From positions 1 to 64,000 of the IMG/VR virus record IMGVR_UViG_3300032516_000014: a DNA stretch of 64,000 bases. One strand, given 5' to 3'. A program made the position numbers and the translations under genes. Source of the DNA: a virus. How positions within the stretch are numbered: position 1 is the first letter of the stretch; every line of letters starts with the position of its first letter. Shown one piece after another: positions 12,538 to 44,083 of this stretch. A model generated the notes under the pieces. It was not told the DNA's origin. It saw only the letters and a program-made list of their open reading frames with translations, and did not search any database.

Positions 12538-12566
12538 AAGCTACACCTGCACGCGGAAATTGTCAA
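12538..12566 (-). promoter_or_regulatory. Sigma-70-type promoter for the tRNA-like RNA
   Basis: TTGACA (12566-12561), 17-nt spacer, TAGCTT (12543-12538). Confidence 0.7.
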
Positions 12567-13507
12567 ACAACTATTTTTCGGATCAAGCTCTCGTAAAACG
12601 GAAGAGCGTTGTCTTCCCAGCGCCGGGGGTAGTTGAATTTGAAGAAGTCCCATTCGTAGTGCGTCTCGGGCCAGGTAACCCCAAACTGAAAAGACCGCCA
12701 GGGAAGAGCGAAAAGATCTTCATCAGAGATTGCGGGACGCTGAAAGATTTGCGTGAAGAGGTCCGCGCCGATCCGGGATATGAGCAACATCGTCGGGTGA
12801 GAAATCAACCAAAAGAGTTTCTCCCGTCGCAGGTGTGCCCGGACAAAAGGTTCAATGGGGGTGTCGCACTGGGCGTCTTTCTGCGCCATGCGGTTCATCG
12901 CTTCGGCGTGCCGGGTGGTAAACTGCGGGTCGAATTGCCCCTCGCGGAGGGCGCGCGCGATCTGATCGTGCGTTTGCCCGGCGCGTAGCAGCCGGCGGAC
13001 GTTCTCCAGGTCTTTTGGGATGTCGGTAACGGGAAAGATGCTGCTGAGAGAAGGCGCGTGCATGCGCAAGCGGCGCCCTGGGATCTCTGCGGCTACTTGA
13101 CTGCCGAACTGCTCTAGGAAAGGTTGGTGCGCCGGCCACGCATTCGAGACATAAAAGTCGGTGTGTTGAAAGAACGCATGCACGAGCGGCTGCGCGAGCA
13201 GGGTGGGGATGCGTTCGGGAAACTTCCAGCTCACGATGCCCCAGCAATTCATCTCCGGCGGGTTAGGGTAGAGTTCCTTCCAGTAGCGGAGCAACTGCCG
13301 CCCGTGGCAGGCGGTGTAAAGTCCGAGCGTGGGCCAGTTCGGGCGCCAGGGCTCTGACCACACGATTGAACGTGGATACCATTCGTCCGCCTGTGCGGGG
13401 GCGGTGAAGAATCGTATTTCTTCGGGGGTAGGCGCGCGAGCCAGCAGGGCAACGAAGACCTGGGTCACGCTCTCCGGGGTGGGGTGCTCGAAGTTCCAGA
13501 TGCTCAC
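12563..13507 (-). CDS. WcbI-like polysaccharide biosynthesis protein
   Basis: LYTACHG and KLFWLISHPT resemble the WcbI-family xxNCQ and LFxxxNHP motifs; GTGA-coupled start at 13507. Confidence 0.55.
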   Translation of the reverse strand: MSIWNFEHPTPESVTQVFVALLARAPTPEEIRFFTAPAQADEWYPRSIVWSEPWRPNWPTLGLYTACHGRQLLRYWKELYPNPPEMNCWGIVSWKFPERIPTLLAQPLVHAFFQHTDFYVSNAWPAHQPFLEQFGSQVAAEIPGRRLRMHAPSLSSIFPVTDIPKDLENVRRLLRAGQTHDQIARALREGQFDPQFTTRHAEAMNRMAQKDAQCDTPIEPFVRAHLRREKLFWLISHPTMLLISRIGADLFTQIFQRPAISDEDLFALPWRSFQFGVTWPETHYEWDFFKFNYPRRWEDNALPFYESLIRKIVV

Positions 13508-13809
13508 GGGATCTCTTCCCTCACCGGGACGGTAGCCAGGTTGTATTTGTGCGCTGCCCAAAGCCGGTGGTGCCCGTCGCTCACAATTCGCCTGCCGTGG
13601 CGCCAGGTGATCAGGACTGGCGTGCGCACCCCGTATTGGCGCACCGAGGAGAGAAAGTGCCGCCAGGCTTCCGGGCAGGCTTGAAAGTGGCGCTGCTCGA
13701 TGTAGGCAAAAACTTCCCCCCAGTTACCCTCGTGGCATCCGCGGTAATCCACGGGGGAAGTGGACGCCAGGATCTCTGCAAGTGGGCGGGTTTCAAAAAG
13801 CGTTTGCAC
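13504..13809 (-). CDS. ParB/Srx-like N-terminal domain protein
   Basis: SVRQYGVRTPVLI…VSDGHHRLWAA…VPV. Confidence 0.85.
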   Translation of the reverse strand: MQTLFETRPLAEILASTSPVDYRGCHEGNWGEVFAYIEQRHFQACPEAWRHFLSSVRQYGVRTPVLITWRHGRRIVSDGHHRLWAAHKYNLATVPVREEIP

Positions 13810-13879: not shown

Positions 13880-14566
13880 TCAAACAGCCGGCTTGAGCAA
13901 AGAATTTACCAGATTCCCATACCCCGGCTTTGGTCGGGAGGTCGGGGAGGTCGGGGCCAGGTTCTTCAGCCGGCTTGCCAACAGCGCGTTTTGCGCCCCG
14001 GCGGGCACTGGGCGGCCCGGCATCGGGGAGGGGGACAACGAGGCACCCCCCGGGGTTGCGGCTTGTTCTTGGCCTGGTTGCGCTCCAATGGCGGGGGTTT
14101 CTTCGTCTCCTGCCGCGGCGCTATCGCCGAGCAGCGTGGAGATCGGAACAGCCACCTCGGTCAGTTTCCCGGCCTTGTCGGCGTCCTTGATTTGCTGGCC
14201 CGGGATTTTCTCCGGGTTGAAAAGCGCGTAAGTCGTTCCATCTAAGGCGCGATAGAGGTTCAAACCGATCGACATCACGTCGTGCATGCGGGCACCGATC
14301 TCCTGCACCACTGGGTTTTTCTCGTCCTCCGGTGTCGAGTAGGCTGCCGGCGGGGTGCCCGCAAAGATTGCCCGGACCGGCGGAAGATCCAGCACGTTCT
14401 CGGGATTCGCGGTCGGGTTCACCTGGGCAACCGTGTCCTCTCCGTAAATCGGGGCGCGCTGGGCCTGGCTATTGGTAGGCACGAGTGCCTGCACCGCGGC
14501 ATCGTTGATCTTCGAGCTCGGGGCGGGGGCGGTTGGGTCGAACAGATTAGGGCTTCCGGTGGGCAT
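13880..14566 (-). CDS. Hypothetical Pro/Ala-rich virion-associated protein
   Basis: Start MPTGSPNL at 14566 preferred; last gene of the structural operon. Confidence 0.7.
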   Translation of the reverse strand: MPTGSPNLFDPTAPAPSSKINDAAVQALVPTNSQAQRAPIYGEDTVAQVNPTANPENVLDLPPVRAIFAGTPPAAYSTPEDEKNPVVQEIGARMHDVMSIGLNLYRALDGTTYALFNPEKIPGQQIKDADKAGKLTEVAVPISTLLGDSAAAGDEETPAIGAQPGQEQAATPGGASLSPSPMPGRPVPAGAQNALLASRLKNLAPTSPTSRPKPGYGNLVNSLLKPAV

Positions 14567-14747
14567 GGGGGCTTTCTTTCTTGGGACGCTTGTGATCATG
14601 CGCAAGCACATCTTCGAGTTGTTCGCCAGTGCCGAAGGTGGCGACGGCGTGCTCCCGGAACAGCGCGAGCTGTTGGGGGGTCATGGATTTCTGGATGTCT
14701 TCCCAGGTGATCCGCTTCCAGGTGCCGCGTTTCATAGGTTCGGGCAT
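14547..14747 (-). CDS. Small hypothetical protein
   Basis: 66-aa ORF starting directly after the giant ORF stop. Confidence 0.55.
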   Translation of the reverse strand: MPEPMKRGTWKRITWEDIQKSMTPQQLALFREHAVATFGTGEQLEDVLAHDHKRPKKESPHAHRKP

Positions 14748-14748
14748 A

Positions 14749-17700
14749 TCATTTCGGGCGAATCTCTGCCTTCTCGGCGGATTGCGTAGCGGGTTTCACG
14801 GCGCCGGCTAAACGCTGACGCCGTTCCCACTCGTCCACCAGCACGCGATGCCAGTTTTTATCAACCCGGCGAAACCGATCATCGGTCACTAGACGCTGTA
14901 ACTCGGCGTCGGGCATCCCCTGCGACATCATCTTCTCATTCTGGCTCGCGCGCTTTGGCATAAAATTCGCCGAGTTAATATCGCCCAGGTCGAGGCCCAA
15001 GTCAAGGGGCTGTTCTGTCGGCGCGGCCCGGATCTCCAGCCGGCCAGTTTCCTCGTTTCGTTGCAGCTTTTTCAACGGCTCCTCGAAAGACGCCAGCTCT
15101 TCGCCGGCCCCCCGAGTCCACCCGCGCTCGCCCCACAGCTTCTTTTCCTGAAACCACATCAGGGCTTGCAGGTCGTCCGGCTGCATGTGCAACTCTTTTG
15201 CCGCCTTTGCAAATGCTTCCTGCGCGAACAAGAAGGCGGGATCGGTAATGCCGCCCTCGCTGCGGGGCAGCAATCGCCACGGAGATTTCGTCAGCCCGTC
15301 CCAGCCCAGGCGTTTCATCGTCCGGGAAGCCCACACGTCGATGGTCGCGCCGTGATCGGTGCCCGCCAGGTTTTTCGCAAACTGCTGCGTCTTGAGCCCC
15401 TGCACTTCCTCGGCCCAGGTGCCGGACAGCACCCGCAAAACCTGATCCGAGTTCTGGCCAAATTGTTTTTCGTTCTCGCGAACTAAGGAGAGCTCGCGGC
15501 TTTCGATCCACCACTCCTTCAGCGCAGCGTCGGAGGGCACGATGGTTGAGTTGTTCTCGCGCTGCCATTGCCGCAACAACCCGCCCGTTTCCAGCTTGGC
15601 ATAAGCCTTCTTGTATGAAGCGATCGCGTCGTCGAACTTGCCTTCCTTCCAGAGGTTATACGCTTCGAGAGCATACTTGAAGTTTTGGGCCACGTCAGTT
15701 CTCGCGCTGGTGGCCGCGAGCAACTGGGCGAAAGAAGTAACCTCGGCGTCAGTCTTGAAGTGCTCTTTGATCAGCCGGACGGTTTCTTGATACCAGGACT
15801 TGCCGGCGAGCACGTCTGGGTCAGCAATTGCGCGCGCTTCTTCGGCAATCTTCTTGGCGAATGCAGTCGTCTGGGCATCTTGACGCGCTGACTCTCCGCG
15901 GATTCCTTTGGCAGCTTGCCGGGACAAAGGCGAATCGTCGAACGTGTATTTCACCATGTTCACGAGGGGCTTGCCTTTGGCGTTGATAATGTATTCGCCT
16001 TCGGGGGTTCGCTTGAACAGGACGGGCACTGACTCCGGGTGGAATTCAACACGTTCCTGCGTTACGCGCCGAGCGTAATCCCGAGCAAAGGCTTGCGGGT
16101 CCGTCTCCGTTACCTCGGCCCCGAACTCTGCTTGCTCCGCGTCGCCTTTCTTCGGCTTGGGCATGAACGCGGCTCGTTGCGCGCCAGTGTCAGAAATGAG
16201 GGGGAGGTGATCCAACTTGTCGATGCCCTCATACTCCACCAGGTTTGCGGCGCCTCCATCGACAATCTTCATTTTGCCGTTGAGGATGTTGACCCGCATG
16301 TGGTCGATGTCGTCGAGGTTCTCGCGCACCAACTGGAAAATCTTGTCCTTCGCATCCGTGGTCCAGGCGTTCTCGGAAGCCTCGATCGCTAGCGTTCCGG
16401 TGCGAGGTTCGTAGCGAACGCGAATGAAGCCTTCTCGAATGGCCTTCTCTCGTTCAGCAATGTCGGGCACGTTTGCAAAGTCCGTGCCGTATTCCGCGTT
16501 GAGCTTAGCGCTATTACGGGCCAGCCAGTCCTCGTGCATGCTGCCCTGGATGGAGCGGAACTTTCCGTCGGGGTCGATCCACCCGGAGGTTTCCAGCTTC
16601 TCAGGTTCCTCCCGCCGGCCGCGCTTAGCCATCATTGCTGCTTCGGGCGGTTTGGGCAGCTCGGCTGGGATCGCGTTCTCTCCCTTCAACAACGCTTGCA
16701 CCGCCTTCGCAATCTGCGCGGGAGAGGTCAGAACGGTTTTCCCAGTGCCGCCCACCGGGATTGAGTGTCCGTAAGGGTCCTTCTCCGTGGGCACCGTGTC
16801 ATAAATCGCCTGCTGCTGGTTGAACTTCCCAAAAGCGATCGTGTTGTCCCGATGCTTCTGATCAGGCAGCGCATTCACGTCGATGCTTGTCTGCGTCGGG
16901 TCGTCCATCTTGAACACCCCCATAGCCGTCCCCGGAATTGCAAGCACGTCCTCGTATCGGTCGGCTACTTTTTGCACCGCCGCCGGAGTGAGTGCCTTCG
17001 TCAGCACGTTCTCGCTGGCCACGGTGACGATGTCCACTTTCTGATCTTTTCGATCCCACACCTTGCCGGCGCCGGTGAACGTCTGCCCAGAGCTGGTGCC
17101 CTCGCGAACCTTTGCAAGTTCGTCGGCGACTTCCTTCGATTTCTCAAACGCTTGCGGCATGAAGGCGCCGTGAAACTGCGCAACCCTTGACGAAGTGCGA
17201 CTGGGCAAGTGGCCGGCGCGATAAAACTCTTTGATGTCGTTGATAATTACCGTTGGATTCGTGACGGCCGGATAAACCCGGCTATCACGTGCGTAACCGT
17301 TTTGATCAACTAAATCAACAGCCACCTCCCCCCACTCATTTTTCAAACTCGGATCAGCGAAGAAACTTTCCAGCTTGCGATATTGTGCCTCAGAAGGTTC
17401 TTTGTTTGAGGAGATCTCCGCACCGGGTAACTCCGGCATGATTCGGATCGCGCCGGAATTGACAAACGCTGTCAGCCCGGATGTTTCACCGGAGTAACCC
17501 AATTTCCCAGCACCGGCTTTCTTCGATGCCGCCGCTATGAACGGGGTAAGCATGTTTTCTCCCACCGCTTCAGCAATCGAAGAGTGGTCGATCGTGCGTT
17601 TGTAATCTCCAGGCGGGGCATCGGGACCTTTGCCGGTGAAATCAAGCTGCGTGCCGTCGGGTAGTAGATAGCCGGTCTCCTTCCACTTCTCCGTGTCTCC

Positions 17701-20700
17701 GTATTCCCGCCAGGCGGCGCGATGCAAGCGTCGAGCGTATGTAGTCAGTAACTTGTCTTCGGACTCCTTGCGCTTGGCCATGAACGCACCTTCGGCCTTG
17801 CCGGTGGGTTCATCAACAATTTTCCATCCGAGACGATTAAGAGCGCTCTCGAAAACATCAGTCCCGACAGGAAGTGTTCCGCGGGGAACGCCGGGTAGAG
17901 GCTCCCACACAGTCACAACTCTTGTCAGAGCTCCAGTAGCAGGAGAATACCGGGGCTTGCCAACCGATGCCCGCACAAGTTGGTTGTCGGGACCCTGCAA
18001 CAAAACGCTCACGTCTCCGGGTGTCGATTTCGGTATGTTCTTAAAAGACCAGCCGGATTTGTTTCTCCAAGCAGAGCGTTCCATTACTTCTGCTCCCGTT
18101 TCTTTTTGCCCGGGGATGTCCTCGGGTAAAATAGGCAGATCAGCCATTCCAGCGACTCGACTTTTCGTCATGAACGCACCTTCGGCCTTGCCGGGCGTCT
18201 TGTCAAGTTGCTGCGAGGCCCAGTCGTAGATCTCGCGCGCGAAATTCTCGTGGATCGCCGGGTCGGTGTGGAACGACTTCGCGAGCACGTTCTCATCCAC
18301 GTCGGCGGCAGAGGTCGTCTTCAACTCCTTCGACAACTCGCTGCCCTCATACACGGCCAGGTTGTAGATGTTCGCGTGGCTGATCACGTCTGAATTCTTC
18401 CGGAGGAAGTCCATCGTGTGCGCATAGGTCGCCGCGGTCTCCCCCGGCAACCCGATCACGATGTTCGGAATGAACGCGATGCCCAGCCGGCGCATCTGCT
18501 CGGTGGCGGCGTCGATCAACTTCTCGTTCGCCGGTTTGCGCTGACCTTTCAGCACGCTGTCGTTGTAGGACTCGACGCCCAGCTCGATGAACTTGATGCC
18601 GCTCTTGCGCAGGAATTCGTCGCTGAAGGACTTCATTTGCGCCGCCGTCGTCTGAATCACGAAGCCCCCGAAGTCGGGATTCGCAGCCTTCATCTTGGCA
18701 TAGAGCTCGGGCAGTCGCAAGTAACTGTCGTGATGGCCGAAGGTTTTGTCGTTGAGATAAGCCAGCGGCGCATTCAGATCGCCGAAGGCGTCCACTTGCT
18801 GAGTCACTACCTCGGGCGGCGTCCCAACGACCTTTTTCGTGGTCGTGCAGAACTTGCACGCGTGCCGGCACCCCTGCGAGAGATCCAGCCGAGGAACAAC
18901 GGAAGAACCCCGATACAAGCGGTAGTCAAAGCCGCGTTTGTATTCCAGCCCAAGAGATCGAACGTATTCATCGATGGATTCATACCGGGTTGCGCGAGGG
19001 TTGCGCGAGGTGATCTCGCTGGTGTCCGTGTAGCCGCCCAGGACCGTGTGGCCTGGATTTGCGTCCGCGAGCTCCGCGACCTTCGACTTGTTCACGTCGA
19101 GCACCGAGAAGGCCACGTCCTGGTAGCCCGCTGTGGCGAGAAAGCTCTTGGCTTCCGCCATGTCGCGCACCACGTAGAGATCCGCCGCCTCGCCAAGCGC
19201 GTGTGTCAACACTGCGTGCCACTGCGGGACTTCCCAGAAGTCGGGCAGTCGAGCATACCCCTTGCGCTGCGCATACAGCTTGTCGTAATATGCGGATGCA
19301 GCAACATCCAAGGGATTTGGAGGTTTGTTCACGTCGGTTGGGGCATACATCATGTCCTTCGTGAACTGCATCAGCAACACCCGGTTGGAGTTGTCCGACG
19401 CTCCCGACTGGCGAACCCATAGGTTGCCCTTGCCCCGCTCGACCGCGTGCCCATACGTATCCGCAGGCTCCGTAATCTCGCTGCCGCGCGCCTTGGGCAT
19501 GAACGCCGCCGGGGTGAGGCCGGCGGATTCCCCCGGAAGAGCGGGCCGGTCGGGGTTTGTCTCAGAGCTTCCGACCATGCCATCAGGAATGTCGATCGGT
19601 CGCTGCGGAGTCGGCCCGAGTGGTTCAGTTGTCGCAGGGGCATCTTCTACCGTCCAACCCTTCTTGTTTAGCGAGGGCTCGTATGTGGTGCTACGCGCGG
19701 TGAAAGCACCGGGGAAAGATTCCTTGGGTGTGATCTGTCGCACCATACCCAGGCCCAGCACGGAGGCATCCTGGTCCCCGTCGTGCGTGGCTGCGACTCG
19801 TTCCCCGTTCGGCCCCACCAGGGTTACGTCACGCTTCGGCATGAAGCCGGCGCGAGCCAGGTCCGTCGAAGGCATGCGCAGCAAAGACTCAGGCCGCGGC
19901 GTGAGACCGCGGATCTGCTCCAGACTGAGCTCTTGCGTGACTTCGTGCAACTGCCCTTTCGCGTCGAAGCCGGCGTCCACCAGCTCCGCCCGCAGGGGGT
20001 TGGTCTCCATGACCGGCACGTCTTCCGGGACGATGATGCCCTTCTTGGCAAGAGCTTCCTTCTTGAAGACCGGCGCGCCTTTCGCGGGGGTAAGCGGGCG
20101 CCCATGCGCCTCTGCAAGTATCTGTGCCGCCATTCCCGCGGGCATCGGCATACCCGAAGGTCCGGTTCGCTGGGCAACTCGGCCAGTTTTCGGCGGAGCG
20201 AGGCCCATCGAGGCGTTGATGAATTGCGCTTTCCGCGGATCAAGAAGGGTCGGCTTCCAGTTTGGATCTGGCGCCGGGATTACCCCTTGCCAGCCTGCGG
20301 GTGGGTGCATCGCCGTGCCGTCGCCGCCGTAGCCGTGAGCGTGATTGCGCAGGTAAGAGGTTACATCAGCCGCAAAGTCCCTAAATCCAGGCTCCGTGAA
20401 ATGCCCGTCCGACCCTGTTTCATACGGCACAAGACCTGGTGCCTTCTTGCGAGCGGAAAACTCTCCAATCCGTAGCGCATTCGCGAGCAGGATGTCGAGG
20501 TTCATCGACAGCAGGTTTACGTTGTCTCCGCGAACCTTAACGCCATAGAATATCGCTTGATGTCGGAGCGTCCGCAAGAGTTCAACCGGATAGGTCCCGT
20601 CCGCCTTGCGCTGCAATTCGACTTCAAGACGCTCCGCCCTGCGGATGTATCTTGCCACGTTTTCACCAACCGTTTCGGGCCGGGCATAGTCGAGCTCCAC

Positions 20701-23175
20701 TGGAGTAACATCGCCATGTTCCCGTTGCAGCAATTCCCAAACCTGGTCCATCACTGCCTTGGCGTTGTCGTCGTATTTCGGGGAAGCTTGCGTGCGGCGG
20801 CGCGCTTCGGAAAGCCCTTCGATGTCTTTCGCCTGGGCGACGAATTCTTTGGTGCCTACGCCTGGCGGGCGCATGAGCGAAGCCTGCGCGCCTGTCGTTG
20901 CCGCTCGAATCGGCACCGCTCCAGGCACCCCGGGGGCTGGACGAAGAACGGGCTGGATCTCCAAAGCTTTCAACCTCTCCGCCAGCACGGGAGTTTCCAG
21001 AGAACGAAAAACAGGTTCGGCAAGCTGTCGCCCTGTAAAAGAGGGCGTCAAACCGCCGTGGCGGCCGGTGATAAAAGTTTTCGGATCGAGAGTTGGGCGA
21101 ACTATGCCTGCCTTTTCAAATAGCGAGCCCAGAGCTGTAAACGCGGAGTTTAGCACTCCGGGTGGCGCGCCGTTCAAAGACCGCCCACGTAGAATGGCGC
21201 CCAGGGTCTCCGCAGAAGCTTCGTCCAGAATGTTGCCGGTCGCACCTTTGCCCCCGTAAAGCTCTTCAAGCGCGGGGCGGATCGGGTTGACGTGCGTAGC
21301 CAGATCTGCCCGATACTTTTCCCAGGCAGGCCGATCTGTCTCCCGAAGCAGCCAGTCGAGCACGTGCCCGGGCTCATGATAAACTGCGGCGTCCCCACCA
21401 TTCAACAACATGACTTTCCGTGGTCCCCGGCCTTCCGTCGGATCAAGCCGGACGGTGAAGCCACGCTGCCCCCGGGCTTCAGCAATCAGTTGCTCCGGCG
21501 TGAAGTCCGGGTGTTCGCGTTGAACTTCAGCCAACACCCGCGGATCTTGGGCAAACTGGTCCACAGGCAGCAAGTAAAGCTCAGCCTTGCCGCGGAAGTA
21601 TTCCCGCACCCGATTGATCAAACCTGCTGTGGGGGAATCGTTCCTGCGCAACGCTTCAATCGCCTGCGTGTGGGCCTGATCGAGGTTGGGTTCGATGTTG
21701 AAAGCCGGTGAACGCACCGGGTCACGCGCGACTTCCTGATACCGCGCCTGGTAAGCCCTTGCGACGCCTTCGTGCGCAGCAGAAACGGCTTGACGTGTTG
21801 CTCCCCCGAAGCCACCAAAGAAAGCCATCGTGCCGATGAGCTGCCCCGCCTCCATGTCAGTATGCGCCCCCAGGGCAAACGGCGCGCTCGCAAGACCGCC
21901 TTCGATTGCGCCAGCCACCGCCGGGGTTGCAAGTTTTGCGATCGGCAACGCGTTCTCAGCCAGGGCTGCTCCGCCGCGCTTCAAACCCCACTCCGTCCCC
22001 TTTGTCACAGCATGCGCAACTTTGCCGGCGACCCAGCCCCCCGGACCCGCCGTGACTGCCCCGCCGAGCGGAGCTTCTTTTCCGACCCAACCCACCACAG
22101 GAGCCGCCGCTTTTTCTGCGGCCCATCCCGCACCTTTGAAAAGCTTCGCCAGGGAAAATTCTGTTGCGATGCCGATGGTCTTTCCTCCAAGACCGATCAC
22201 CTCGAACAGCTTGCCTCCGCCCATCGGAATGAACGTCATCGGCCCGTTGAAGAGCGACTTGTCTGCGATCGCTTCTGGATCGAGGGTAACACCGGCGGCC
22301 TGCAATCGCTCCGGGGTAACGCCTGCCAAGGAAGATACGACCCCACCTCCCTGCGCAACGTTTGTGTGCCGACGAAAACTTTCTGCGTCGGCGTCGAGGT
22401 CCTCACGCAACCGCAGACGGCGAGCCTCGGGATTCTCCTCCACCTTCGCCCGTTGGCCAGTCACCTCACCGGGAACACCGGGCACCCCCGGCACCGGGGC
22501 CGCTCGATACACCCGGCCCGCCGTCCGGGAAACAAGAGTAGCCAGATCCCGAGCTTGCAGAATTCCTTCGTCGATTGACGCTACGCTTTCGCCCGCAATC
22601 TTCGCCGCTGCCGCCAGCGTTGAATCCCGCACTTCCATGTTGTTTTCCAACATGTCTTTCGCGAAGGCCCAGGCTAGTTTCGCTTCACCCGCGGCGGCCC
22701 CCGCGACCGCGCGCACCCCACTCTTGCCCGTTTCCCACAAGCCTCGGCCGATCGCTTTTGCGGTGCGCCCCACTTCCCACGGCCGCGCGTCTTGTGCATC
22801 GTAAATCTCGTAAAGCTTCTCGCGCAAATCAGGCGGCAAGTCTTTTCCGTATTGGCCCAGCATCGCCACTGGTGAAAACGCGTCATCCGCCGCTAGTTCT
22901 TGCGGCGTGCGCTCCATCAGTTTCCCGATGTCTGGATTTTGAGGAGCCTGGGAAAACTCCGCAGTGCTTGGTCCTATTGAAGGGATATGCACCGCCCTTG
23001 GGGCAGCCTGAAACTCGTCAAGGGTAGGCGCAGCCGGTGTCACCGGAGCGGCGGCTTGAAACTCGGCGAGATCCGGCACTGGCGCAGCGGCGTTGAATTC
23101 TTCCACCGAAGGCGGGAGAAAAATTCCCGAAGCCGTAGCCTTTTGAATCGGCGACTCTTTGAGTTCGACAGGCAT
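14749..23175 (-). CDS. Giant (2808 aa) polyvalent protein, probable internal virion/ejection protein; HExxH peptidase motif, radical SAM and HhH-like modules separated by xFMPK linkers
   Basis: Follows the GNAT and two ejection-like genes; HEPGH at 21364-21378; CRHACKFC at 18847-18870; eight FMPK-like motifs. Confidence 0.85.
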   Translation of the reverse strand: MPVELKESPIQKATASGIFLPPSVEEFNAAAPVPDLAEFQAAAPVTPAAPTLDEFQAAPRAVHIPSIGPSTAEFSQAPQNPDIGKLMERTPQELAADDAFSPVAMLGQYGKDLPPDLREKLYEIYDAQDARPWEVGRTAKAIGRGLWETGKSGVRAVAGAAAGEAKLAWAFAKDMLENNMEVRDSTLAAAAKIAGESVASIDEGILQARDLATLVSRTAGRVYRAAPVPGVPGVPGEVTGQRAKVEENPEARRLRLREDLDADAESFRRHTNVAQGGGVVSSLAGVTPERLQAAGVTLDPEAIADKSLFNGPMTFIPMGGGKLFEVIGLGGKTIGIATEFSLAKLFKGAGWAAEKAAAPVVGWVGKEAPLGGAVTAGPGGWVAGKVAHAVTKGTEWGLKRGGAALAENALPIAKLATPAVAGAIEGGLASAPFALGAHTDMEAGQLIGTMAFFGGFGGATRQAVSAAHEGVARAYQARYQEVARDPVRSPAFNIEPNLDQAHTQAIEALRRNDSPTAGLINRVREYFRGKAELYLLPVDQFAQDPRVLAEVQREHPDFTPEQLIAEARGQRGFTVRLDPTEGRGPRKVMLLNGGDAAVYHEPGHVLDWLLRETDRPAWEKYRADLATHVNPIRPALEELYGGKGATGNILDEASAETLGAILRGRSLNGAPPGVLNSAFTALGSLFEKAGIVRPTLDPKTFITGRHGGLTPSFTGRQLAEPVFRSLETPVLAERLKALEIQPVLRPAPGVPGAVPIRAATTGAQASLMRPPGVGTKEFVAQAKDIEGLSEARRRTQASPKYDDNAKAVMDQVWELLQREHGDVTPVELDYARPETVGENVARYIRRAERLEVELQRKADGTYPVELLRTLRHQAIFYGVKVRGDNVNLLSMNLDILLANALRIGEFSARKKAPGLVPYETGSDGHFTEPGFRDFAADVTSYLRNHAHGYGGDGTAMHPPAGWQGVIPAPDPNWKPTLLDPRKAQFINASMGLAPPKTGRVAQRTGPSGMPMPAGMAAQILAEAHGRPLTPAKGAPVFKKEALAKKGIIVPEDVPVMETNPLRAELVDAGFDAKGQLHEVTQELSLEQIRGLTPRPESLLRMPSTDLARAGFMPKRDVTLVGPNGERVAATHDGDQDASVLGLGMVRQITPKESFPGAFTARSTTYEPSLNKKGWTVEDAPATTEPLGPTPQRPIDIPDGMVGSSETNPDRPALPGESAGLTPAAFMPKARGSEITEPADTYGHAVERGKGNLWVRQSGASDNSNRVLLMQFTKDMMYAPTDVNKPPNPLDVAASAYYDKLYAQRKGYARLPDFWEVPQWHAVLTHALGEAADLYVVRDMAEAKSFLATAGYQDVAFSVLDVNKSKVAELADANPGHTVLGGYTDTSEITSRNPRATRYESIDEYVRSLGLEYKRGFDYRLYRGSSVVPRLDLSQGCRHACKFCTTTKKVVGTPPEVVTQQVDAFGDLNAPLAYLNDKTFGHHDSYLRLPELYAKMKAANPDFGGFVIQTTAAQMKSFSDEFLRKSGIKFIELGVESYNDSVLKGQRKPANEKLIDAATEQMRRLGIAFIPNIVIGLPGETAATYAHTMDFLRKNSDVISHANIYNLAVYEGSELSKELKTTSAADVDENVLAKSFHTDPAIHENFAREIYDWASQQLDKTPGKAEGAFMTKSRVAGMADLPILPEDIPGQKETGAEVMERSAWRNKSGWSFKNIPKSTPGDVSVLLQGPDNQLVRASVGKPRYSPATGALTRVVTVWEPLPGVPRGTLPVGTDVFESALNRLGWKIVDEPTGKAEGAFMAKRKESEDKLLTTYARRLHRAAWREYGDTEKWKETGYLLPDGTQLDFTGKGPDAPPGDYKRTIDHSSIAEAVGENMLTPFIAAASKKAGAGKLGYSGETSGLTAFVNSGAIRIMPELPGAEISSNKEPSEAQYRKLESFFADPSLKNEWGEVAVDLVDQNGYARDSRVYPAVTNPTVIINDIKEFYRAGHLPSRTSSRVAQFHGAFMPQAFEKSKEVADELAKVREGTSSGQTFTGAGKVWDRKDQKVDIVTVASENVLTKALTPAAVQKVADRYEDVLAIPGTAMGVFKMDDPTQTSIDVNALPDQKHRDNTIAFGKFNQQQAIYDTVPTEKDPYGHSIPVGGTGKTVLTSPAQIAKAVQALLKGENAIPAELPKPPEAAMMAKRGRREEPEKLETSGWIDPDGKFRSIQGSMHEDWLARNSAKLNAEYGTDFANVPDIAEREKAIREGFIRVRYEPRTGTLAIEASENAWTTDAKDKIFQLVRENLDDIDHMRVNILNGKMKIVDGGAANLVEYEGIDKLDHLPLISDTGAQRAAFMPKPKKGDAEQAEFGAEVTETDPQAFARDYARRVTQERVEFHPESVPVLFKRTPEGEYIINAKGKPLVNMVKYTFDDSPLSRQAAKGIRGESARQDAQTTAFAKKIAEEARAIADPDVLAGKSWYQETVRLIKEHFKTDAEVTSFAQLLAATSARTDVAQNFKYALEAYNLWKEGKFDDAIASYKKAYAKLETGGLLRQWQRENNSTIVPSDAALKEWWIESRELSLVRENEKQFGQNSDQVLRVLSGTWAEEVQGLKTQQFAKNLAGTDHGATIDVWASRTMKRLGWDGLTKSPWRLLPRSEGGITDPAFLFAQEAFAKAAKELHMQPDDLQALMWFQEKKLWGERGWTRGAGEELASFEEPLKKLQRNEETGRLEIRAAPTEQPLDLGLDLGDINSANFMPKRASQNEKMMSQGMPDAELQRLVTDDRFRRVDKNWHRVLVDEWERRQRLAGAVKPATQSAEKAEIRPK
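17779..18194. repeat. Exact 26-bp direct repeat CATGAACGCACCTTCGGCCTTGCCGG at 17779-17804 and 18169-18194
   Basis: Read directly; 390 bp apart, in frame; encodes GKAEGAFM on the minus strand. Confidence 0.95.
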
Positions 23176-24562: not shown

Positions 24563-25528
24563 TTACTGTCCTGGATTGCTGAATTGCGACTTGTAATAAG
24601 TCAGGTCCGAATTGCTTAGGTTTGGCGTCCCTCCCGAGCCACCGCCGCCCATCCCGCCTATCGCGTTCCCCAGGAAATTCGTCGCTGCTCCGATTTCCTT
24701 GCCCGTGGTTTCGGCGTTCATGAGTTTGTTGCCCGCCGCGGCGTTTGCAAGATCCATCATCTGCTGATTCTTCATCTGAATCTGCTTCAGATGCAAGTTG
24801 ACCACGTCGCCGCCGGCCAACCCGATGCCCGGCATCGCGGTTTCTCCGAGCCTAGAGGCCAGCCCTGCCCGGTCAGCCCGCGCATTCTGAACCTGCACGA
24901 GGGATGAAGTCAGATTGCCGAGAATCTGCGCTCGGGCGGAGTCCATGTTCGTCACCAGGCCCAGCTCGCTCTGCGCTGTCGCCTGGCGCTGCTGCTTCAA
25001 AGCTTCGCCCTGCACGCCGATCAATTCCCGCATGCGCACTCCGACCGGTCCCTCTGCCGTCGGCCGAACACCACTGCCCGTCGAAAGTCCCGCGCGCACA
25101 AGCTCCGCCTCGTATTCCGGGGACAACGTCGCGCCCAGGTCCAGGTTCTCCTTGGCCTTGTCCAGCAACAAGTCCCGAACTGCATTGCGCTTTGTATCCG
25201 CCGGCACGTTCTCCTTGACCATCTGCGCCAGCACCGAGTCTTCTTGATTCTTGTGCAGGTCGTCCTGCAAGATGTCTGCCAAAGCACTGGCGCCCGTCTC
25301 CCGGAGCTGGGCCAGCAACGGATCGTATTTCTTCTGCGCCGCAATGCTCCCTTTGAAGCGATCGAGGTCCGCCTGTTTCGCTTCTGCTTTTGCCGTGCCG
25401 GTGTCAAGAGAGGTCTGTTTCTCGACCGATTGCTTGATGATCTTGTAGGCCTTGTTTTGGGCATGCCTGTTCATCTCGGACGACACTATCGTCCCCACCA
25501 TGCCGATCATACTTCCTGCCATGCTCAT
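24563..25528 (-). CDS. Probable DNA-transfer/pilot ejection protein
   Basis: Gly-rich hydrophobic N-terminus, helical core and Gly-rich C-terminus; position after the GNAT gene. Confidence 0.6.
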   Translation of the reverse strand: MSMAGSMIGMVGTIVSSEMNRHAQNKAYKIIKQSVEKQTSLDTGTAKAEAKQADLDRFKGSIAAQKKYDPLLAQLRETGASALADILQDDLHKNQEDSVLAQMVKENVPADTKRNAVRDLLLDKAKENLDLGATLSPEYEAELVRAGLSTGSGVRPTAEGPVGVRMRELIGVQGEALKQQRQATAQSELGLVTNMDSARAQILGNLTSSLVQVQNARADRAGLASRLGETAMPGIGLAGGDVVNLHLKQIQMKNQQMMDLANAAAGNKLMNAETTGKEIGAATNFLGNAIGGMGGGGSGGTPNLSNSDLTYYKSQFSNPGQ

Positions 25529-25968
25529 AAGGCTCCTGTCTGTTTTAGAAAGGTCAGTTCCGTCATCCGAAACCCCTTCTTCAAGTAAATCTGGGCGACG
25601 CTGCGGCCCGGCTGATTCATCATGCAGCCGGCGCTAATCAACTTCACGTCCCGACGCGCAGCTTCCGTAAACAACGCGTTCAACAACTCGGCGCCGTGCC
25701 CCCGGTATTTGGGCCGGACATACCAGTGCACCACCGTCAGGATTTGCTGGCCCGTCATGATCTCCCGAGTCGCGGTCGCGCACAGCATGCCCTCGACAAA
25801 ATCAATTTCCAGCAAGAACACTGCGGCGGCCAAGGAATCAAATGCCGCAGCCCACCACGAGCAGTAGTGCGCTGCGCTAAACTCCCCGGGGAAGCCTCCT
25901 TCGGGAAAAGCCTCCCCCGCCAGCACCGCCATCTGCGGTATGTCCGCCGTTGTCGCGCGTCTGATCAC
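25525..25968 (-). CDS. GNAT-family acetyltransferase-fold protein (podovirus virion assembly type)
   Basis: MIRRATTADIP, WYVRPKYRGHG, YLKKGF. Confidence 0.85.
   Translation of the reverse strand: MIRRATTADIPQMAVLAGEAFPEGGFPGEFSAAHYCSWWAAAFDSLAAAVFLLEIDFVEGMLCATATREIMTGQQILTVVHWYVRPKYRGHGAELLNALFTEAARRDVKLISAGCMMNQPGRSVAQIYLKKGFRMTELTFLKQTGAL

Positions 25969-32270: not shown

Positions 32271-32274
<4 letters not shown>
31480..32274 (-). CDS. Tail fibre/spike protein with beta-helix-like domain
   Basis: YYVATTGNDANDG…PFLTIQKA…IQIADGTY motif. Confidence 0.75.
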
Positions 32275-35008
<2,734 letters not shown>

Positions 35009-35012
<4 letters not shown>

Positions 35013-35980
35013 CGAATGTCTTCATCCCAGCGAGTCGATGCAACCGCTCCACGGTCCATGATCTGCGGCGGCATGAAGGTCTGCGGCGTGCGGGCTTGCT
35101 GCTCTTCCATCAGCCAGCGCAACGCGTGCACCTCGAAGGTGGCCCCGTTGGTCACGTCAGAGTCCACGTCGTAAAACTTCATCGCCTTGAGCATCATGAG
35201 AATGGCCCACGGCGAATTGAGGGGAATGAGGTCGGTCAGCGTCGCAAACTGAATCGACCGGCGCCGGAAGCACAGCCGGACCCAAGTGCTCTCGCGAGAG
35301 ATCTCAATCCGCCGATACATCGGCTCGGTCTCGTTCCACTGGAACACCCCAAGCAAAGTGCCAGTATCACAAGCAGTATTCGGCCGGTGCGAGAAATCGA
35401 AACTGGACAGCCGCACCCGATCCGTGGTAACGGCTTTGCGCACGCGAGCGACCCGACCCACAACAGGATCATCCACCGAAGGCAACGCATACCGATAAAG
35501 CGTCGGCACCCGGTAGCCATCCACCCACCCGATGGTGTCCTGGGAACGAATCCACTTGCCCGTGCTGTCGTAGCCGTAAACCCACAGCTCGCAATTCTCG
35601 TCCGCCTGGTTCTCCACAAACGCAACCAGCCGGCTCGGCGCCTTGAGGTCTTTGTGCGTCGGCCACTCGCCGTTGTCCTTCCAGGACCAATCACAGGGGA
35701 TCTTGCAGTCGCCCACTCCATTCAAGTGGAAAGAAAACAACTGATCATGCGCCAAGGTAGGCTTGCCCCCGATATTCACCGCAAGCACCGTCTCCACTTC
35801 CCGGGGCAGGGTAATGCACTTCTCAGTTGCGCAAATGTCAACGAACCCGATCAGGGGGTCCCAATCCCCCTTGTTGGCCAGCAACTCAACCGCCAACGTC
35901 ATCCGACGCAACAGAGTTGCCTGATCACAAATACCGGTGATCCGCTTCGCATCGTCCCAAATCTCGCCGACCGTGATCAT
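35009..35980 (-). CDS. Probable tail adaptor (tubular A-like) protein
   Basis: MITVGEI… start, ITLPREVETVLAV; lies between head and nozzle genes. Confidence 0.55.
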
Positions 35981-36335: not shown

Positions 36336-37478
36336 TCAGTAATAGTAAACCACCAGGAAAGCTTTCCGGTTGCCCGTTGTGTCCGTAGTCGCACCAGTGC
36401 CCTGCCGCGCATAAAGATTCACCAGCAACGGATCATCCGAAGAAAACGAAGCCAGAGATCCCTCGAACGAAACCGCGACTGCGAGCTGGTTGTCCGCCAC
36501 GGCGGGAGAGACAAAGTTCGCGAGGTCCGTGCCGCCCCAGAGCGTTCCCGTCGGATAAACCTCTGTGTCAAATGTCGGTAAACCGCCGGCTTTCACTTTG
36601 AAAGTGCCAATGCCTTGCGCGGCCCCGGCACCGTTCGATACTAAAACGTCCTGGAACAAGATCCGGCAAAGGCCCCAAGACTTACTTGGGAGAGCCACGA
36701 TACTCCACGACCAAAGCGCGGTATCCGTAGCCCCGAGGGCAGTGCCGGAAGCAGTGCCCCGATCCACGATCATGTTCGTCGCACCACCAAGCCCCGTCCC
36801 GGCTGGACCTGTGGCACCGGTTGTGCCAGGAGGCCCCGCCACTCCCGTCGATCCCCCCGGCCCCGCCACTCCAGTCGCACCAGTCAAACCCGTAGGCCCG
36901 GTTGCGCCAGGAGGCCCAGCACCAACCACCAAAGATGAAATCGGAACCGTGACCAGATGCCCAGATAACTCCTGCACCAACTGCAACACAATCATGTTGG
37001 CGCCGACCACAGAAACCTGGTAATACCCCGAGCCCGCAATCACCAGCCAAGCCCCAGGAACAATCCAGGCCGTCGAAGTCACCGGAATCGTCACTGTTGC
37101 CCCCACAACAGGGTGCAAAAACGCAGCCGACGTGAAAGACCACGGCGGAGCCCCATCCACTCCCGCCGGACCCTGTGGACCTTGCGGGCCAACCAAGCCC
37201 ACAATACCGTTGAGGAACAGCCGCAAGAAATAGCACGCAAGACCTTCGCCCGCCGTGCGCGGATTCGAGGGCAGCCCGATGTCCAGGTTGCACGGGAGCA
37301 CCCACACGACTTCGCCGTTCACCACCGTCTTAGTAACGGTGCCGAAAAACGACTCGATGAAATTGTCCAGAGCAGACTCCAACGGCTCATTGTCCGCCGT
37401 GACTACCGTCGGGCACGAGCACGGGTTGATGCACCCGCAATTGGTAACGCAATCACCGCCACAACTTTCGCAAGACAT
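36336..37478 (-). CDS. Collagen-like fibre protein with Cys-rich N-terminus
   Basis: CESCGGDC…CGC..PCSCP; two Gly-X-Y tracts. Confidence 0.75.
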   Translation of the reverse strand: MSCESCGGDCVTNCGCINPCSCPTVVTADNEPLESALDNFIESFFGTVTKTVVNGEVVWVLPCNLDIGLPSNPRTAGEGLACYFLRLFLNGIVGLVGPQGPQGPAGVDGAPPWSFTSAAFLHPVVGATVTIPVTSTAWIVPGAWLVIAGSGYYQVSVVGANMIVLQLVQELSGHLVTVPISSLVVGAGPPGATGPTGLTGATGVAGPGGSTGVAGPPGTTGATGPAGTGLGGATNMIVDRGTASGTALGATDTALWSWSIVALPSKSWGLCRILFQDVLVSNGAGAAQGIGTFKVKAGGLPTFDTEVYPTGTLWGGTDLANFVSPAVADNQLAVAVSFEGSLASFSSDDPLLVNLYARQGTGATTDTTGNRKAFLVVYYY

Positions 37479-40890: not shown

Positions 40891-41967
40891 TTATCCACCA
40901 TTACCCCCCGGCAAAGCCGAGTAACGGGGCCGCAAATACTGATAGAAAATCTGCCGATACGCTTCCGCCGAAAAATCCGTGGTCCACACGATCAACTCGG
41001 CCAGATCCATGTCCGTCGTCGAAGGTCCGCCCGCCCCCGTGTAGCCGATCCGTTGAAACGTCTCCACCTTGCCCACATTCGCGACATAGCCCCGGTTAAG
41101 GCCGGGACCTTCAAACTGAACCAGAGAACCCGCCGAAGTCTCCTCCGCGGTCTGGGACAATATACACGCCGCCCAAACATTCTGGCGGCCTTCAAAAGCT
41201 CCCCCCGGAGCACGCGCGTTGTTGTTGATCTTGCCGTCAAAGCAATAGTTGTCGTAGGTGCCAGCATTCAAAAACTTCAACGTCATGTAGAAATTCGTCG
41301 CGCCCGTTTCCCCCAGCACCACGCTAACCGCGGCACACCGCACCACAGCAAGAGCAGTCCAGTAAATCGGTGTGGTGCCTGCCGTGCCGTTCCTCAGAAT
41401 TATCGGATTCGGTCCATCGAGATACTTCTGGTTGCCACCGGCATTCCGGAAACGCACCGCGGAAGCCGTGCCCAGCGCATTAGCAACATAAACCGGCTGG
41501 TTAGCCGCCGTCGCTTGCACCCAATTGCCCCCCAGAGATCCTTCATTTGTCCACGAGGCAACAGGATCGGTATCGGCTAACACAAGCGAACTAGCCCGAA
41601 GCCAAACCACTGGCAGCGGCAACATGCTCGCAACATCAGTAATCAAACCAGGAACCGTCAACCCCGCCGCACCGTTGGCACCAGCAGCGCCGTTAGTACC
41701 GTTAGCACCAGGCGCACCGTTCGTGCCGTTGGTGCCGTTAGTGCCGGCTGCCCCAGGCAGACCGTTAGTGCCGTTGGTGCCGTTTGCACCGGGCGCCCCG
41801 TTCGCGCCGTTGGCGCCGTCAGCGCCGTCAGGACCAGCCGCACCATCAGGACCGGGAGCCCCGTCGGGCGCGCCAAGCTTCGAGAACGAACCCCCCGAGA
41901 TCTCTCGCAAAATCTTCGCCAAAAGAGCGTTCTTACCGTCCCCGGTCTGGTAAACCTCGCGACTCAT
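40891..41967 (-). CDS. Collagen-like fibre with LamG/ConA-like head, paralog 3
   Basis: GAN/GTN repeats; WLRASSL..VASWTNEG…QP…AVRF…LAELIVW. Confidence 0.8.
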   Translation of the reverse strand: MSREVYQTGDGKNALLAKILREISGGSFSKLGAPDGAPGPDGAAGPDGADGANGANGAPGANGTNGTNGLPGAAGTNGTNGTNGAPGANGTNGAAGANGAAGLTVPGLITDVASMLPLPVVWLRASSLVLADTDPVASWTNEGSLGGNWVQATAANQPVYVANALGTASAVRFRNAGGNQKYLDGPNPIILRNGTAGTTPIYWTALAVVRCAAVSVVLGETGATNFYMTLKFLNAGTYDNYCFDGKINNNARAPGGAFEGRQNVWAACILSQTAEETSAGSLVQFEGPGLNRGYVANVGKVETFQRIGYTGAGGPSTTDMDLAELIVWTTDFSAEAYRQIFYQYLRPRYSALPGGNGG

Positions 41968-43040
41968 AAACCATTACCTCCAGGCAACGCCGGGTAACGC
42001 GTCCGAAAATACCCGAAGAAAAGCTGGCGCAGAATATCGGTAGGCACGTCCGTCGTCCAGGCTATCAACTCCGCCAGGTGCATGTTCTCCAAAATCGCTT
42101 CCGTGCCGCCCCAACCCAGCCGGCCTACGTTCGCAAAACCACCGCCCCCCGAACCAAAACATCGCAGCAAGCCTGGTCCTTCGTAACTCGTCTCGTCTTT
42201 GGAAGAAGACGAAATGAATCCCGCGCGCTGATAAGTCAACATCGTCCACTCCCCGGCAGCGGCGTCATGATACTGATTTGCAAAACTAGGACCACTCGTC
42301 AAATAAGTCGATAACGCGACTCTGTTTGACGCCGTGACATTCGTCACAAACCCGATTCGATTCGTGCTAGTCGTCCCCGTCTGTTGTCCAAGCAAAATGG
42401 TCGCATTCGACGCTTTCATTATCGCGATCACCGTGCAATACAAAGGCGATTGCCCCGACCCGGACCCCAGTAACGTCAAAGTCGCCGGAGCGTCCAGATA
42501 CCGATGCACCGTATTGCCCGCATCATACAAAAACTTCACCGCCGGCTTCGTGCCAATGGCATTCGTTACGTATTCGGGTTGCTTGCCAGCGGTAGCCTGC
42601 ACCCAATTTCCTCCAGCAGAACCTTCATTTGTCCACGAAGCAACCAGGTCCCCGTTATTCAAAACCAAAGAATCGGCTTTGAACCAAATCAAAGGAAGAG
42701 GCAAAAAGTCAGCGATGGCGATAACCGATCCCGTCGCCTGATTACCGTTGCTGCCGTTAGCGCCGGGCAAACCGTTCGAGCCGGCTGCGCCATTCGTGCC
42801 GTTGGTGCCGTTAGTGCCGTTTGCCCCAGGCGCACCGTTCGAGCCGTTAGTGCCATTGGTGCCGTTTGCACCGGGCGCCCCGTTCGCGCCGTTGGCGCCG
42901 TCAGCGCCGTCAGGACCAGCCGCACCATCAGGACCGGGAGCCCCAGAGATTCCAGAAAAAGACCCCGCGAGAACGGAATTCAAAATCTTCCGCAACAGCG
43001 GATTGTTCGCGTCTCCGGTCTTGTAGGTCTGATCGCTCAC
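41964..43040 (-). CDS. Collagen-like fibre with LamG/ConA-like head, paralog 2
   Basis: Same architecture as its neighbours. Confidence 0.8.
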   Translation of the reverse strand: MSDQTYKTGDANNPLLRKILNSVLAGSFSGISGAPGPDGAAGPDGADGANGANGAPGANGTNGTNGSNGAPGANGTNGTNGTNGAAGSNGLPGANGSNGNQATGSVIAIADFLPLPLIWFKADSLVLNNGDLVASWTNEGSAGGNWVQATAGKQPEYVTNAIGTKPAVKFLYDAGNTVHRYLDAPATLTLLGSGSGQSPLYCTVIAIMKASNATILLGQQTGTTSTNRIGFVTNVTASNRVALSTYLTSGPSFANQYHDAAAGEWTMLTYQRAGFISSSSKDETSYEGPGLLRCFGSGGGGFANVGRLGWGGTEAILENMHLAELIAWTTDVPTDILRQLFFGYFRTRYPALPGGNGL

Positions 43041-44083
43041 ACGCCGTTTCCTCCCTTGACTGACGGAAACTTCCCCCGGATATATCCATAGAAAATCTGG
43101 CGCATCGCACTTTCATCAAGATCAAGCGACCACGCCATCAACTCGCACAAATCAAAATTCTCATTGATGCTCACCGCGCCGGAATACCCCATCCGCTGAG
43201 GCAAGAATCCAAACGCATCTCCTACGCGCCCTCGCACAAGCCCCGGCCCTTCATACACCACGTCTTGAAACGCTTTGCGCGTTATTCCGATCATCGCAAA
43301 GTCGCCAAACCGAGTTTCACACCACGACGGGGCCGAATAAGCACTCGTCTGGAGGTAATAGTTCAACGAGTAATTGTTTAAGGCACCCACGCCGTTAATC
43401 GTCAACCGATCCGCAACACCACTTGCCCCCGCCAATCCTAACACCTGGCTTTGCGCCAAGGCGCAGATAACCAAAATTATGGTTGCATTCTTCGGCAAGG
43501 TCCCGGTCGTATTGTGAAGCAACGTCACGGCTGCTCCCGCGTCCAGATATTTGTGGTTCGGATTCGCGTATCGAAATCGAACCGCGGATTGAATGCCTAG
43601 TGCATTCGTGATATACGTCGGCTTGTTATTCGCCGTAGCCTGCACCCAGTTTCCCCCGACCGAGCCCTCGTTGGTCCACGAAGCAACGGGGTCATTATTG
43701 TTCAACACAAGCGAACTCGCCTTGAACCAAATCAACGGAGTGGGCAACACGTCCGTCAACGTCTCAATTCTTCCAGGAGCCGGAGCTCCCGCCGCACCGT
43801 CAGAACCAGGAGCCCCGTTCGAGCCGGCTGCCCCGTCAGTGCCATTGGTGCCATTGGTGCCGTTTGCCCCAGGCGCACCGTTCGTGCCATTGGTACCGTT
43901 GGTGCCGTTTGCACCGGGCGCCCCGTTCGTGCCATTCGAGCCGTCAGAACCAGCGCTGCCGTCAGGACCCGGCGCACCGTCAGGACCCGCCACACCCGCA
44001 AAAGAACCTTCGTTCAACGCTGTTGCCACTTTTCGCAGCAACCTGTTGTCGGAATCACCAGTCTTTGGGACGTTATCGCTCAT
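43037..44083 (-). CDS. Collagen-like fibre with LamG/ConA-like head, paralog 1
   Basis: Same architecture as its neighbours. Confidence 0.8.
   Translation of the reverse strand: MSDNVPKTGDSDNRLLRKVATALNEGSFAGVAGPDGAPGPDGSAGSDGSNGTNGAPGANGTNGTNGTNGAPGANGTNGTNGTDGAAGSNGAPGSDGAAGAPAPGRIETLTDVLPTPLIWFKASSLVLNNNDPVASWTNEGSVGGNWVQATANNKPTYITNALGIQSAVRFRYANPNHKYLDAGAAVTLLHNTTGTLPKNATIILVICALAQSQVLGLAGASGVADRLTINGVGALNNYSLNYYLQTSAYSAPSWCETRFGDFAMIGITRKAFQDVVYEGPGLVRGRVGDAFGFLPQRMGYSGAVSINENFDLCELMAWSLDLDESAMRQIFYGYIRGKFPSVKGGNGV

Follow-up and report, generated by a model that had tools for sequence, protein, structure and literature searches.

The stretch of DNA analysed here (the window) comprises 64,000 nucleotides, the first 64 kb of a complete 76,395-bp IMG/VR genome of an uncultured phage with direct terminal repeats (record IMGVR_UViG_3300032516_000014). 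Its minus strand encodes a giant protein of 2,808 amino acids (aa), P0001, which by its architecture is a phage polyvalent protein. In this protein and its relatives, the tripeptide F-x-P marks the exact end of a constant N-terminal part and the boundaries of the modules that follow, family-wide, and modules are gained, lost and shuffled at these F-x-P junctions. From the sequences, it is also plausible that the junctions are processing sites, as an earlier note on this DNA had proposed. The giant gene and its constant part lie as follows:

14749–23175, minus strand: giant open reading frame P0001, 2,808 aa, last gene of the late, virion-gene strand and the largest late gene
19843–23175, minus strand: constant N-terminal part, residues 1–1111, kept in 144 cluster representatives
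19843–19896, minus strand: conserved end of the constant part, residues 1094–1111 (RPESLLRMPSTDLARAGF)

Residues 1–1111 were searched with phmmer against 1.84 billion cluster representatives (50%-identity clusters), giving 144 matches, and about 100 of these relatives share the overall layout of the window protein. The matched proteins are mostly 1,100–3,500 aa long, with some fragments among them, and almost all alignments stop at query residue 1111. The family logo at this boundary reads RP[DE]L.F[KR]AP[VS]TD..R[AG]GF-[LM]-P, with G in 97/98 sequences, F in 96/98, L or M in 83/98 and P in 92/98, and there is no homology beyond it. The density of F[LM]P is 3.6 per kb in the variable parts against 0.15 per kb in the constant parts, a 24-fold difference over ~100,000 residues on each side. 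The motif is flanked by linker-like sequence rich in E, A, P, G and K. A group of more distant giant proteins with DUF7178 (1,700–2,000 aa, with HELFH near residue 500) carries ...RF-M-P[DE] twice, at about residue 1050 and close to the C-terminus. A related-locus search seeded with P0016 gave no match. Two relatives that start exactly at the motif Met (P0153 and P0157) were considered as evidence of split genes and set aside, as they come from short contig fragments, and on a contig of the same length other gene calls are longer.

The earlier note had described eight linkers of the type xFMPK in the window protein, each opening a separate module. All eight are present where it placed them:

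19834–19851, minus strand: junction 1, AGF-M-PK, Met 1112, at the boundary between constant and variable parts; residues 1112–1125 have a predicted local distance difference test score (pLDDT) below 50
19492–19509, minus strand: junction 2, AAF-M-PK, Met 1226
18163–18180, minus strand: junction 3, GAF-M-TK, Met 1669; degenerate, without Pro; within the left copy of a 26-bp repeat
17773–17790, minus strand: junction 4, GAF-M-AK, Met 1799; degenerate; within the right copy of the 26-bp repeat
17152–17169, minus strand: junction 5, GAF-M-PQ, Met 2006
16624–16641, minus strand: junction 6, AAM-M-AK, Met 2182; degenerate, without Phe and without Pro; between modules of families c12 and c3
16156–16173, minus strand: junction 7, AAF-M-PK, Met 2338
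14953–14970, minus strand: junction 8, ANF-M-PK, Met 2739

Copies of the pattern [AGN][AGN][FM]M[PTA][KQ] number eight, every one beyond residue 1111, with none in residues 1–1111, in agreement with the note's statement that the motif is missing from the first ~1,100 residues. The intervals following junctions 1–8 measure 114, 443, 130, 207, 176, 156, 401 and 70 aa and match its estimates, and recognisable domains do sit wholly between linkers, with radical SAM (residues 1433–1591) and DUF7178 (residues 2432–2675) each inside one module. What did not hold family-wide is xFMPK as the conserved core: the core is F-x-P, present at five of the eight junctions in the window, all five being F-M-P, with the other three degenerate (FMT, FMA and MMA).

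The motif is far from random expectation. The dipeptide FM occurs seven times in the whole protein, each time within the motif, and a count of at least seven was reached in 9 of 5,000 shuffles of the protein; over all 5,000 shuffles the full pattern had a mean of 0.005 copies and a maximum of one. A six-frame scan of the window found just two loose matches beyond the giant gene, and across the whole 76,395-bp genome, counting every frame with 100 aa or more from stop to stop, FMP occurs only three times outside that gene. One of these three sites, near 35077, reads ...TPQTF-M-PPQ and lies ~22 residues from the C-terminus of a 323-aa protein (35009–35980, minus strand) encoded upstream of a 913-aa tail-fibre gene; it may be due to chance.

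F and P are invariant throughout the family, and each lineage has its own middle residue x (L, M, Q, S or K). It is identical at all junctions of one protein, with a few mixed cases (P0117, P0022, P0029 and P0030). Proteins whose first site is FLP carry later FLP at 3.47 per kb and FMP at 0.11 per kb, and those whose first site is FMP carry later FMP at 2.53 per kb and FLP at 0.37 per kb. Other codes occur as well: P0068 has FQP at eight junctions, P0084 has FSP at seven and P0078 has FKP at five. Since the flanks differ between junctions of one protein, the shared tripeptide is not copied DNA. On a quick midpoint-rooted FastTree of the constant parts, read without its branch supports, the code seems to have changed at the first site and the later sites together on several, apparently independent occasions: P0091 is M-type within an L clade, P0100, P0101 and P0118 are L-type within M clades, and P0069 (S-type) and P0078 (K-type) both fall within L clades. 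Because the tripeptide changes in concert within a protein, the pattern suggests that a single recognition factor, encoded in the chain or co-inherited with it, reads all the junctions of one chain.

To define module families, the variable parts of the relatives were cut at the motif and the pieces clustered. The families are constant in size, and their order and number vary between relatives. Among them are:

c0: DUF7178, ~380 aa, mostly the last large module
c1: ~125 aa
c2: ~260 aa, no Pfam match, absent from the window
c5: GNAT, ~150 aa
c7: SAM methyltransferase, ~320 aa
c11: radical SAM
c21: ART-PolyVal

In pairwise BLAST of uncut proteins, 47% of the starts and 36% of the ends of high-scoring segment pairs fall within 10 aa of a motif, compared to 9.7% for random positions. 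The Pfam domains ART-PolyVal, GNAT, methyltransferase, DUF7178 and radical SAM all fall within modules, with ART-PolyVal (PF18760) found in P0077, P0054 and P0111 (E 1e-19 to 1e-23). Family c2, a common cargo found in P0068, P0084, P0078, P0117, P0126 and others, has the strongly conserved sequence AVHD(F/V/Y)FGH..(E/G/Q)(G/S)(Y/F)(E/Q)FGPRGE and looks like an undescribed enzyme family.

Family hidden Markov models (HMMs) recognise five of the modules of the window protein (M1, M2, M5, M6 and M7), which is divided as follows:

19501–19842, minus strand: M1, 114 aa, family c22 (HMM)
18172–19500, minus strand: M2, 443 aa, radical SAM (Pfam match at residues 1433–1591), family c11
17782–18171, minus strand: M3, 130 aa, orphan, recent insertion, G+C content at third codon positions (GC3) 0.485
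17161–17781, minus strand: M4, 207 aa, orphan, low GC (0.544)
16633–17160, minus strand: M5, 176 aa, family c12 (HMM)
16165–16632, minus strand: M6, 156 aa, family c3, with 32 members in relatives
14962–16164, minus strand: M7, 401 aa, family c0, that is DUF7178 (PF23802, phrog_3842; Pfam match at residues 2432–2675)
14752–14961, minus strand: M8, C-terminal tail, 70 aa, ending in ...EIRPK

The whole 2,808-aa protein contains three cysteines, C1436, C1440 and C1443, and these make up the CX3CX2C motif of the radical SAM module (18847–18870). The modules on either side of it, M1 and M3, are distantly similar to each other (28% over 68 aa, E 3e-4). A PHROGs search with the constant part and most modules matched only phrog_3842 (DUF7178), on which no published work was found, and an ESM Atlas search with M6 gave no usable match.

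Cassette turnover at one junction is recent. Contigs 97–100% identical to the window hold zero, one or two modules at junction 4. In P0002, whose constant part is 100% identical, an extra 128-aa c8 module is present there with FMAKRKE on each side. M3 is missing, motif to motif, from P0003 (98% identical over the constant part) and from contigs L001/L003 and L004; in DNA terms, L001 differs from the window by 390 bp, and the sequences to the two sides of this difference are 98.2% and 99.5% identical. The GC3 of M3 (0.485) compares with 0.59–0.80 in the rest of the giant gene, and the module is flanked by an exact direct repeat:

18169–18194: left copy of the exact 26-bp direct repeat flanking M3
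17779–17804: right copy of the same repeat

The earlier note had described the protein as a cassette train in which the linker is also a DNA junction for adding or swapping modules, and had suggested comparing homologs that share the N-terminal part. Such homologs do gain (P0002) or lose (P0003, L001/L004) whole modules exactly at the linker, and distant relatives carry shuffled, motif-bounded sets of the same module families.

The same note had regarded the protein as a polyvalent protein with a zincin peptidase. This is supported by the conservation of the zincin motif, by a modest fold match and by the ART-PolyVal, GNAT and methyltransferase cargo of the relatives. The domain concerned lies within the constant part:

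20950–21723, minus strand: zincin-like domain, residues 485–742 (AlphaFold2 (AF2) pLDDT 82 when folded alone)
21364–21378, minus strand: HEPGH motif, residues 600–604
21208–21222, minus strand: E652-x-x-A655-E656, on the candidate third zinc ligand helix (helix 646–663)

In the 45 aligned relatives, H600 is kept in 100%, residue 601 is always acidic (E or D, 45/45) and H604 is kept in 98%. Of the two downstream glutamates, E656 never varies and E652 occurs in at least 90%, and either could be the zinc ligand; the family pattern is H[ED]xxH...ExxAE. In a longer AF2 model (residues 1–1125), pLDDT exceeds 85 across most of residues 485–742, and order stops at residue 1111, where the motif opens a disordered tail. 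The top match in a VIA-align structure search was anthrax lethal factor (LF; 1yqy, Z 6.9, root-mean-square deviation 4.5, 154 aa), and the Pro-Pro endopeptidases (PPEPs) PPEP-2 (6fpc, Z 6.7, 152 of 185 aa) and PPEP-3 (9g0j, Z 6.6, 165 of 215 aa) scored close to it; the remaining top matches were also LF-type zincin folds. As modelled, the domain most resembles an LF/PPEP-like zincin metallopeptidase, with peptidase activity predicted. It has in common with LF and the PPEPs (MEROPS M34-type zincins) the HExxH motif and a Glu ligand ~48–52 residues downstream, and those enzymes are site-specific and read linear motifs with Pro on the prime side, the Pro spacing of PPEP-1 corresponding to |F-x-P. 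Unlike them, the domain has no sequence-profile match, and with Z of 6.6–6.9 its peptidase function is predicted from fold and motif. Foldseek against the PDB, with the whole model or the domain model, found nothing significant, and phmmer of residues 481–800 against PDB sequences gave no match. Zincin residues tracking the L or M code were also sought; the top columns (693, 602, 692 and 662) were dominated by phylogeny and consistent in some of the independent switches only, and were not used.

We give about an even chance to site-specific proteolysis at F-x-P by the zincin of the same chain. A site-specific protease, most likely this zincin, would then recognise F-x-P and cut there, releasing the individual effectors while the chain is still in the capsid or once it has been ejected into the host; in-frame recombination at a junction would be enough to make a new cassette functional cargo. 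That the motif begins exactly where predicted order ends is in line with processing. Zincins usually read a hydrophobic P1' residue, and given this preference and the invariance of F and P, a cut at x|F-x-P is at least as likely as one at F|x-P. PPEP-1 cuts VNP|PVP, with Pro preferred at P3' and variation tolerated at P2' (PMC10413326). By this precedent, we infer a cut at |F-x-P, which would put an invariant hydrophobic residue at P1', one tuned by lineage at P2' and Pro at P3', with F|x-P as the alternative. The earlier note had considered a cut at F|M, which would leave an N-degron-stable Met terminus; this does not extend to the family, as most relatives have Leu at x, and some have Gln, Ser or Lys.

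Several points weigh against processing by the zincin. A cleavage product, a new N-terminus or an activity has been observed for no member of the family. Three of the eight junctions here are without the full F-x-P core, and would either be uncut or imply a code looser than the logo. The fold matches are modest (Z below 8) at 10–13% identity, and no Pfam peptidase model matches the constant part. In the AF2 model of residues 1–1125 the tail is disordered and left out of the active site. Co-folding of the zincin domain (residues 485–742) with Zn and the linker 1782–1816 scored 0.01, a result that counts neither for nor against cleavage. The giant protein is probably a virion-carried ejection protein, its packaging being judged from gene position and analogy. 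The concerted x could in principle also reflect a binding partner that is not a protease, and for some polyvalent proteins with a zincin, among them N4 vRNAP and ArdC, delivery without cutting is reported (PMC5512222).

A more elaborate proposal is that the protein is a phage polyprotein with a programmable code. The zincin would cut every F-x-P, protease and x (L, M, Q, S, K) would co-evolve lineage by lineage, and a cassette, whatever its source, would become cargo only on acquiring the resident code. Phe and Leu are destabilising N-terminal residues in bacteria, and the effectors would start with one of these in most lineages, so that the injected enzymes would have a built-in short life. 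We put this forward tentatively, and think it somewhat more likely to be wrong than right.

A different account of the concerted code is that F-x-P is an uncleaved short linear motif by which the whole chain docks at intervals onto one partner, organising the packaging or the ordered ejection of a very long protein. Such a partner might be the inside of the capsid, the portal or tail channel or a packaging chaperone, or might lie in the constant part itself, for example its Sm/WYL-like barrel. A lineage-specific x that changes in concert fits any single binding partner, protease or other, and uncut delivery has been reported for some zincin-bearing polyvalent proteins (PMC5512222). The 2,811-aa gp47 of phage phi24B was found in virions, and its authors do not describe processing (bioRxiv 10.64898/2026.04.10.717836). 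However, a tripeptide is very short for a docking motif, its position right at the domain boundaries, in disordered sequence of linker type, is that of polyprotein sites, and every member has a conserved protease-like domain whose catalytic residues are kept. We consider docking unlikely, though worth keeping in view.

The junctions might instead be cut by another protease, either an unrecognised phage prohead protease or a host protease, with the zincin attacking host targets or the cell wall. There is precedent for the first part in giant phages such as SPN3US (PMC10052503), where prohead proteases make multiple cuts at short motifs in head-internal proteins, and for the second in phi24B gp47, whose metallopeptidase was suggested to attack peptidoglycan (bioRxiv 10.64898/2026.04.10.717836). 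Because most virion genes have no Pfam or PHROG match, such a protease might hide among them, but no prohead protease was recognised there. Elsewhere in the open frames of the genome FMP hardly occurs, and hence the site is not carried by other virion proteins. The LF/PPEP-like fold is that of protein endopeptidases rather than cell-wall peptidases, and changes in the code go along with the zincin-bearing protein. A separate protease is on these grounds improbable.

That the motif is a recombination scar only, inherited as DNA with no function at the protein level, draws on the exact 26-bp direct repeat around the newest module and on the duplication of FMAKRKE around the extra module of P0002. 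Against this, F and P are kept among relatives 25–35% identical while the flanks are not conserved, the tripeptide is common to the junctions within one protein although the flanking residues differ, and the eight linkers have no DNA repeat in common except for the one pair that carries the 26-bp repeat. We regard this explanation as very improbable. The use of the motif Met codons as internal translation starts, by which each module would also be made separately, is hardly credible as a general function, even though all eight sites are ATG, two have GAAGG 7 nt upstream and M-P-K, M-A-K and M-T-K resemble ordinary protein N-termini, since a Shine-Dalgarno-like sequence is missing at six of them and most relatives carry Leu in place of the Met, with Gln, Ser or Lys in some.

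Returning to the protein as a whole, the last domain of the constant part (19855–20787; residues 797–1107) contains an Sm/SH3-like barrel. In structure it comes closest to the WYL domains of PafBC (Z 9.6, 91 aa), BrxR, CapW and DriD, which bind ligands or single-stranded DNA. Near the N-terminus (22936–23112; residues 22–80), there are four short repeats of the type (D/E/A)EF(N/Q/S)xAP, and comparable N-terminal repeats occur in P0030 and P0078, e.g. AF-DP(T/S)(Q/K)P. At the other end, a basic tail of 30–70 aa with [IV/L][KR]P[KR] follows the last F-x-P in many relatives (P0012, P0023, P0033, P0086, P0104, P0118 and others); this tail could be a conserved signal for packaging or portal binding.

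The genome has two arms. The plus strand carries replication genes (helicase, exonuclease, DNA polymerase, a sigma-like factor and a RuvC-like resolvase), and the minus strand carries late genes (large terminase, several collagen-like tail fibres, a tail protein and an internal-virion-protein-like gene), with the giant gene placed after the tail-fibre and internal-virion-protein-like genes. Most of the other virion genes have no match in PHROGs or Pfam. Three paralogous genes of ~350 aa with collagen-like tail-fibre N-termini lie in tandem at 40891–44083 (minus strand), and further tail-fibre-like genes are found at 36336–37478 and 32271–35012. A separate GNAT acetyltransferase gene (phrog_1249) lies amid the late genes at 25525–25968 (minus strand); GNAT is also a frequent cargo (c5) in the relatives.

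Self-cutting of polyvalent proteins by their own zincins has been assumed since 2017 without evidence, and the present family offers exact, short candidate sites. Its natural variants F-L-P, F-M-P, F-Q-P, F-S-P and F-K-P could be swapped between cognate proteases, and with both in hand the cleavage hypothesis is directly testable. Were cleavage confirmed, the family would provide a natural design for multi-enzyme delivery proteins. Phage contigs 97–100% identical to each other also display in-frame addition of cargo at a junction, a simple rule by which phages diversify the load that they may bring into cells.

Zincin processing was proposed earlier for the polyvalent-protein class with no site motif given (Iyer, Burroughs, Anand, de Souza, Aravind 2017, PMC5512222), and polyvalent proteins are thought to enter the host together with the DNA (PMC5512222). 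Like them, P0001 is a giant phage-encoded polypeptide with many unrelated effector domains and a zincin-like metallopeptidase: radical SAM and DUF7178 stand in one chain here, and GNAT, SAM methyltransferase and ART-PolyVal are found in relatives. The class signature ART-PolyVal (PF18760) is thus present in the family, whereas the window protein itself has no match to Pfam LPD or MPTase-PolyVal, and no Pfam model of any kind covers the constant part. The 2017 study gives no junction or cleavage motif and does not use the word 'linker' (PMC5512222), and no junction motif is described in the polyvalent-protein literature that was found; here, F-x-P delimits the modules and the code varies by lineage. 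A protein similar in size, class, origin from a short-tailed phage and proposed role as an ejection protein is phi24B gp47 (2,811 aa), which has LPD5/LPD1/LPD38 and a MuF-C metallopeptidase and was detected in virions (bioRxiv 10.64898/2026.04.10.717836). No junction code has been reported for it, and tblastn of the whole giant protein against 50,697 phage records gave no match at E 1e-5; phi24B gp47 thus has no sequence match here.

Prohead proteases of the T4 gp21 and phiKZ gp175 type process head proteins. No protease family was recognised among the virion genes here, and the motif is nearly confined to the giant open reading frame. In giant phages, as with SPN3US gp245 (PMC10052503), prohead proteases cut head-internal proteins at short consensus sites between domain-sized products; the candidate here is a zincin in cis instead of a serine prohead protease, and the motif is another.

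Short boundary motifs are also familiar from polymorphic toxins, with VENN in CdiA and PxxxxDPxGL in Rhs proteins, the latter being an autoproteolytic site as well. Like these systems (PMC3482391), the family uses a short motif to part a constant region from exchangeable C-terminal cassettes, an analogy of logic. Polymorphic toxins have one boundary, one toxin tip and an immunity gene, in contrast to the up to about a dozen junctions in series here, and the two also differ in the phage setting, with no homology and no immunity genes seen; the genes downstream of the giant open reading frame (13880–14611 and 12563–13561) have no PHROG match and no cassette-like similarity. A further parallel in layout, again with no homology, is with eukaryotic and RNA-virus polyproteins, in which short consensus sites lie between domain-sized products and the protease is virus-encoded. 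In the present family, the conserved F-x-P closes the constant part and separates the modules family-wide, as a candidate cleavage site.

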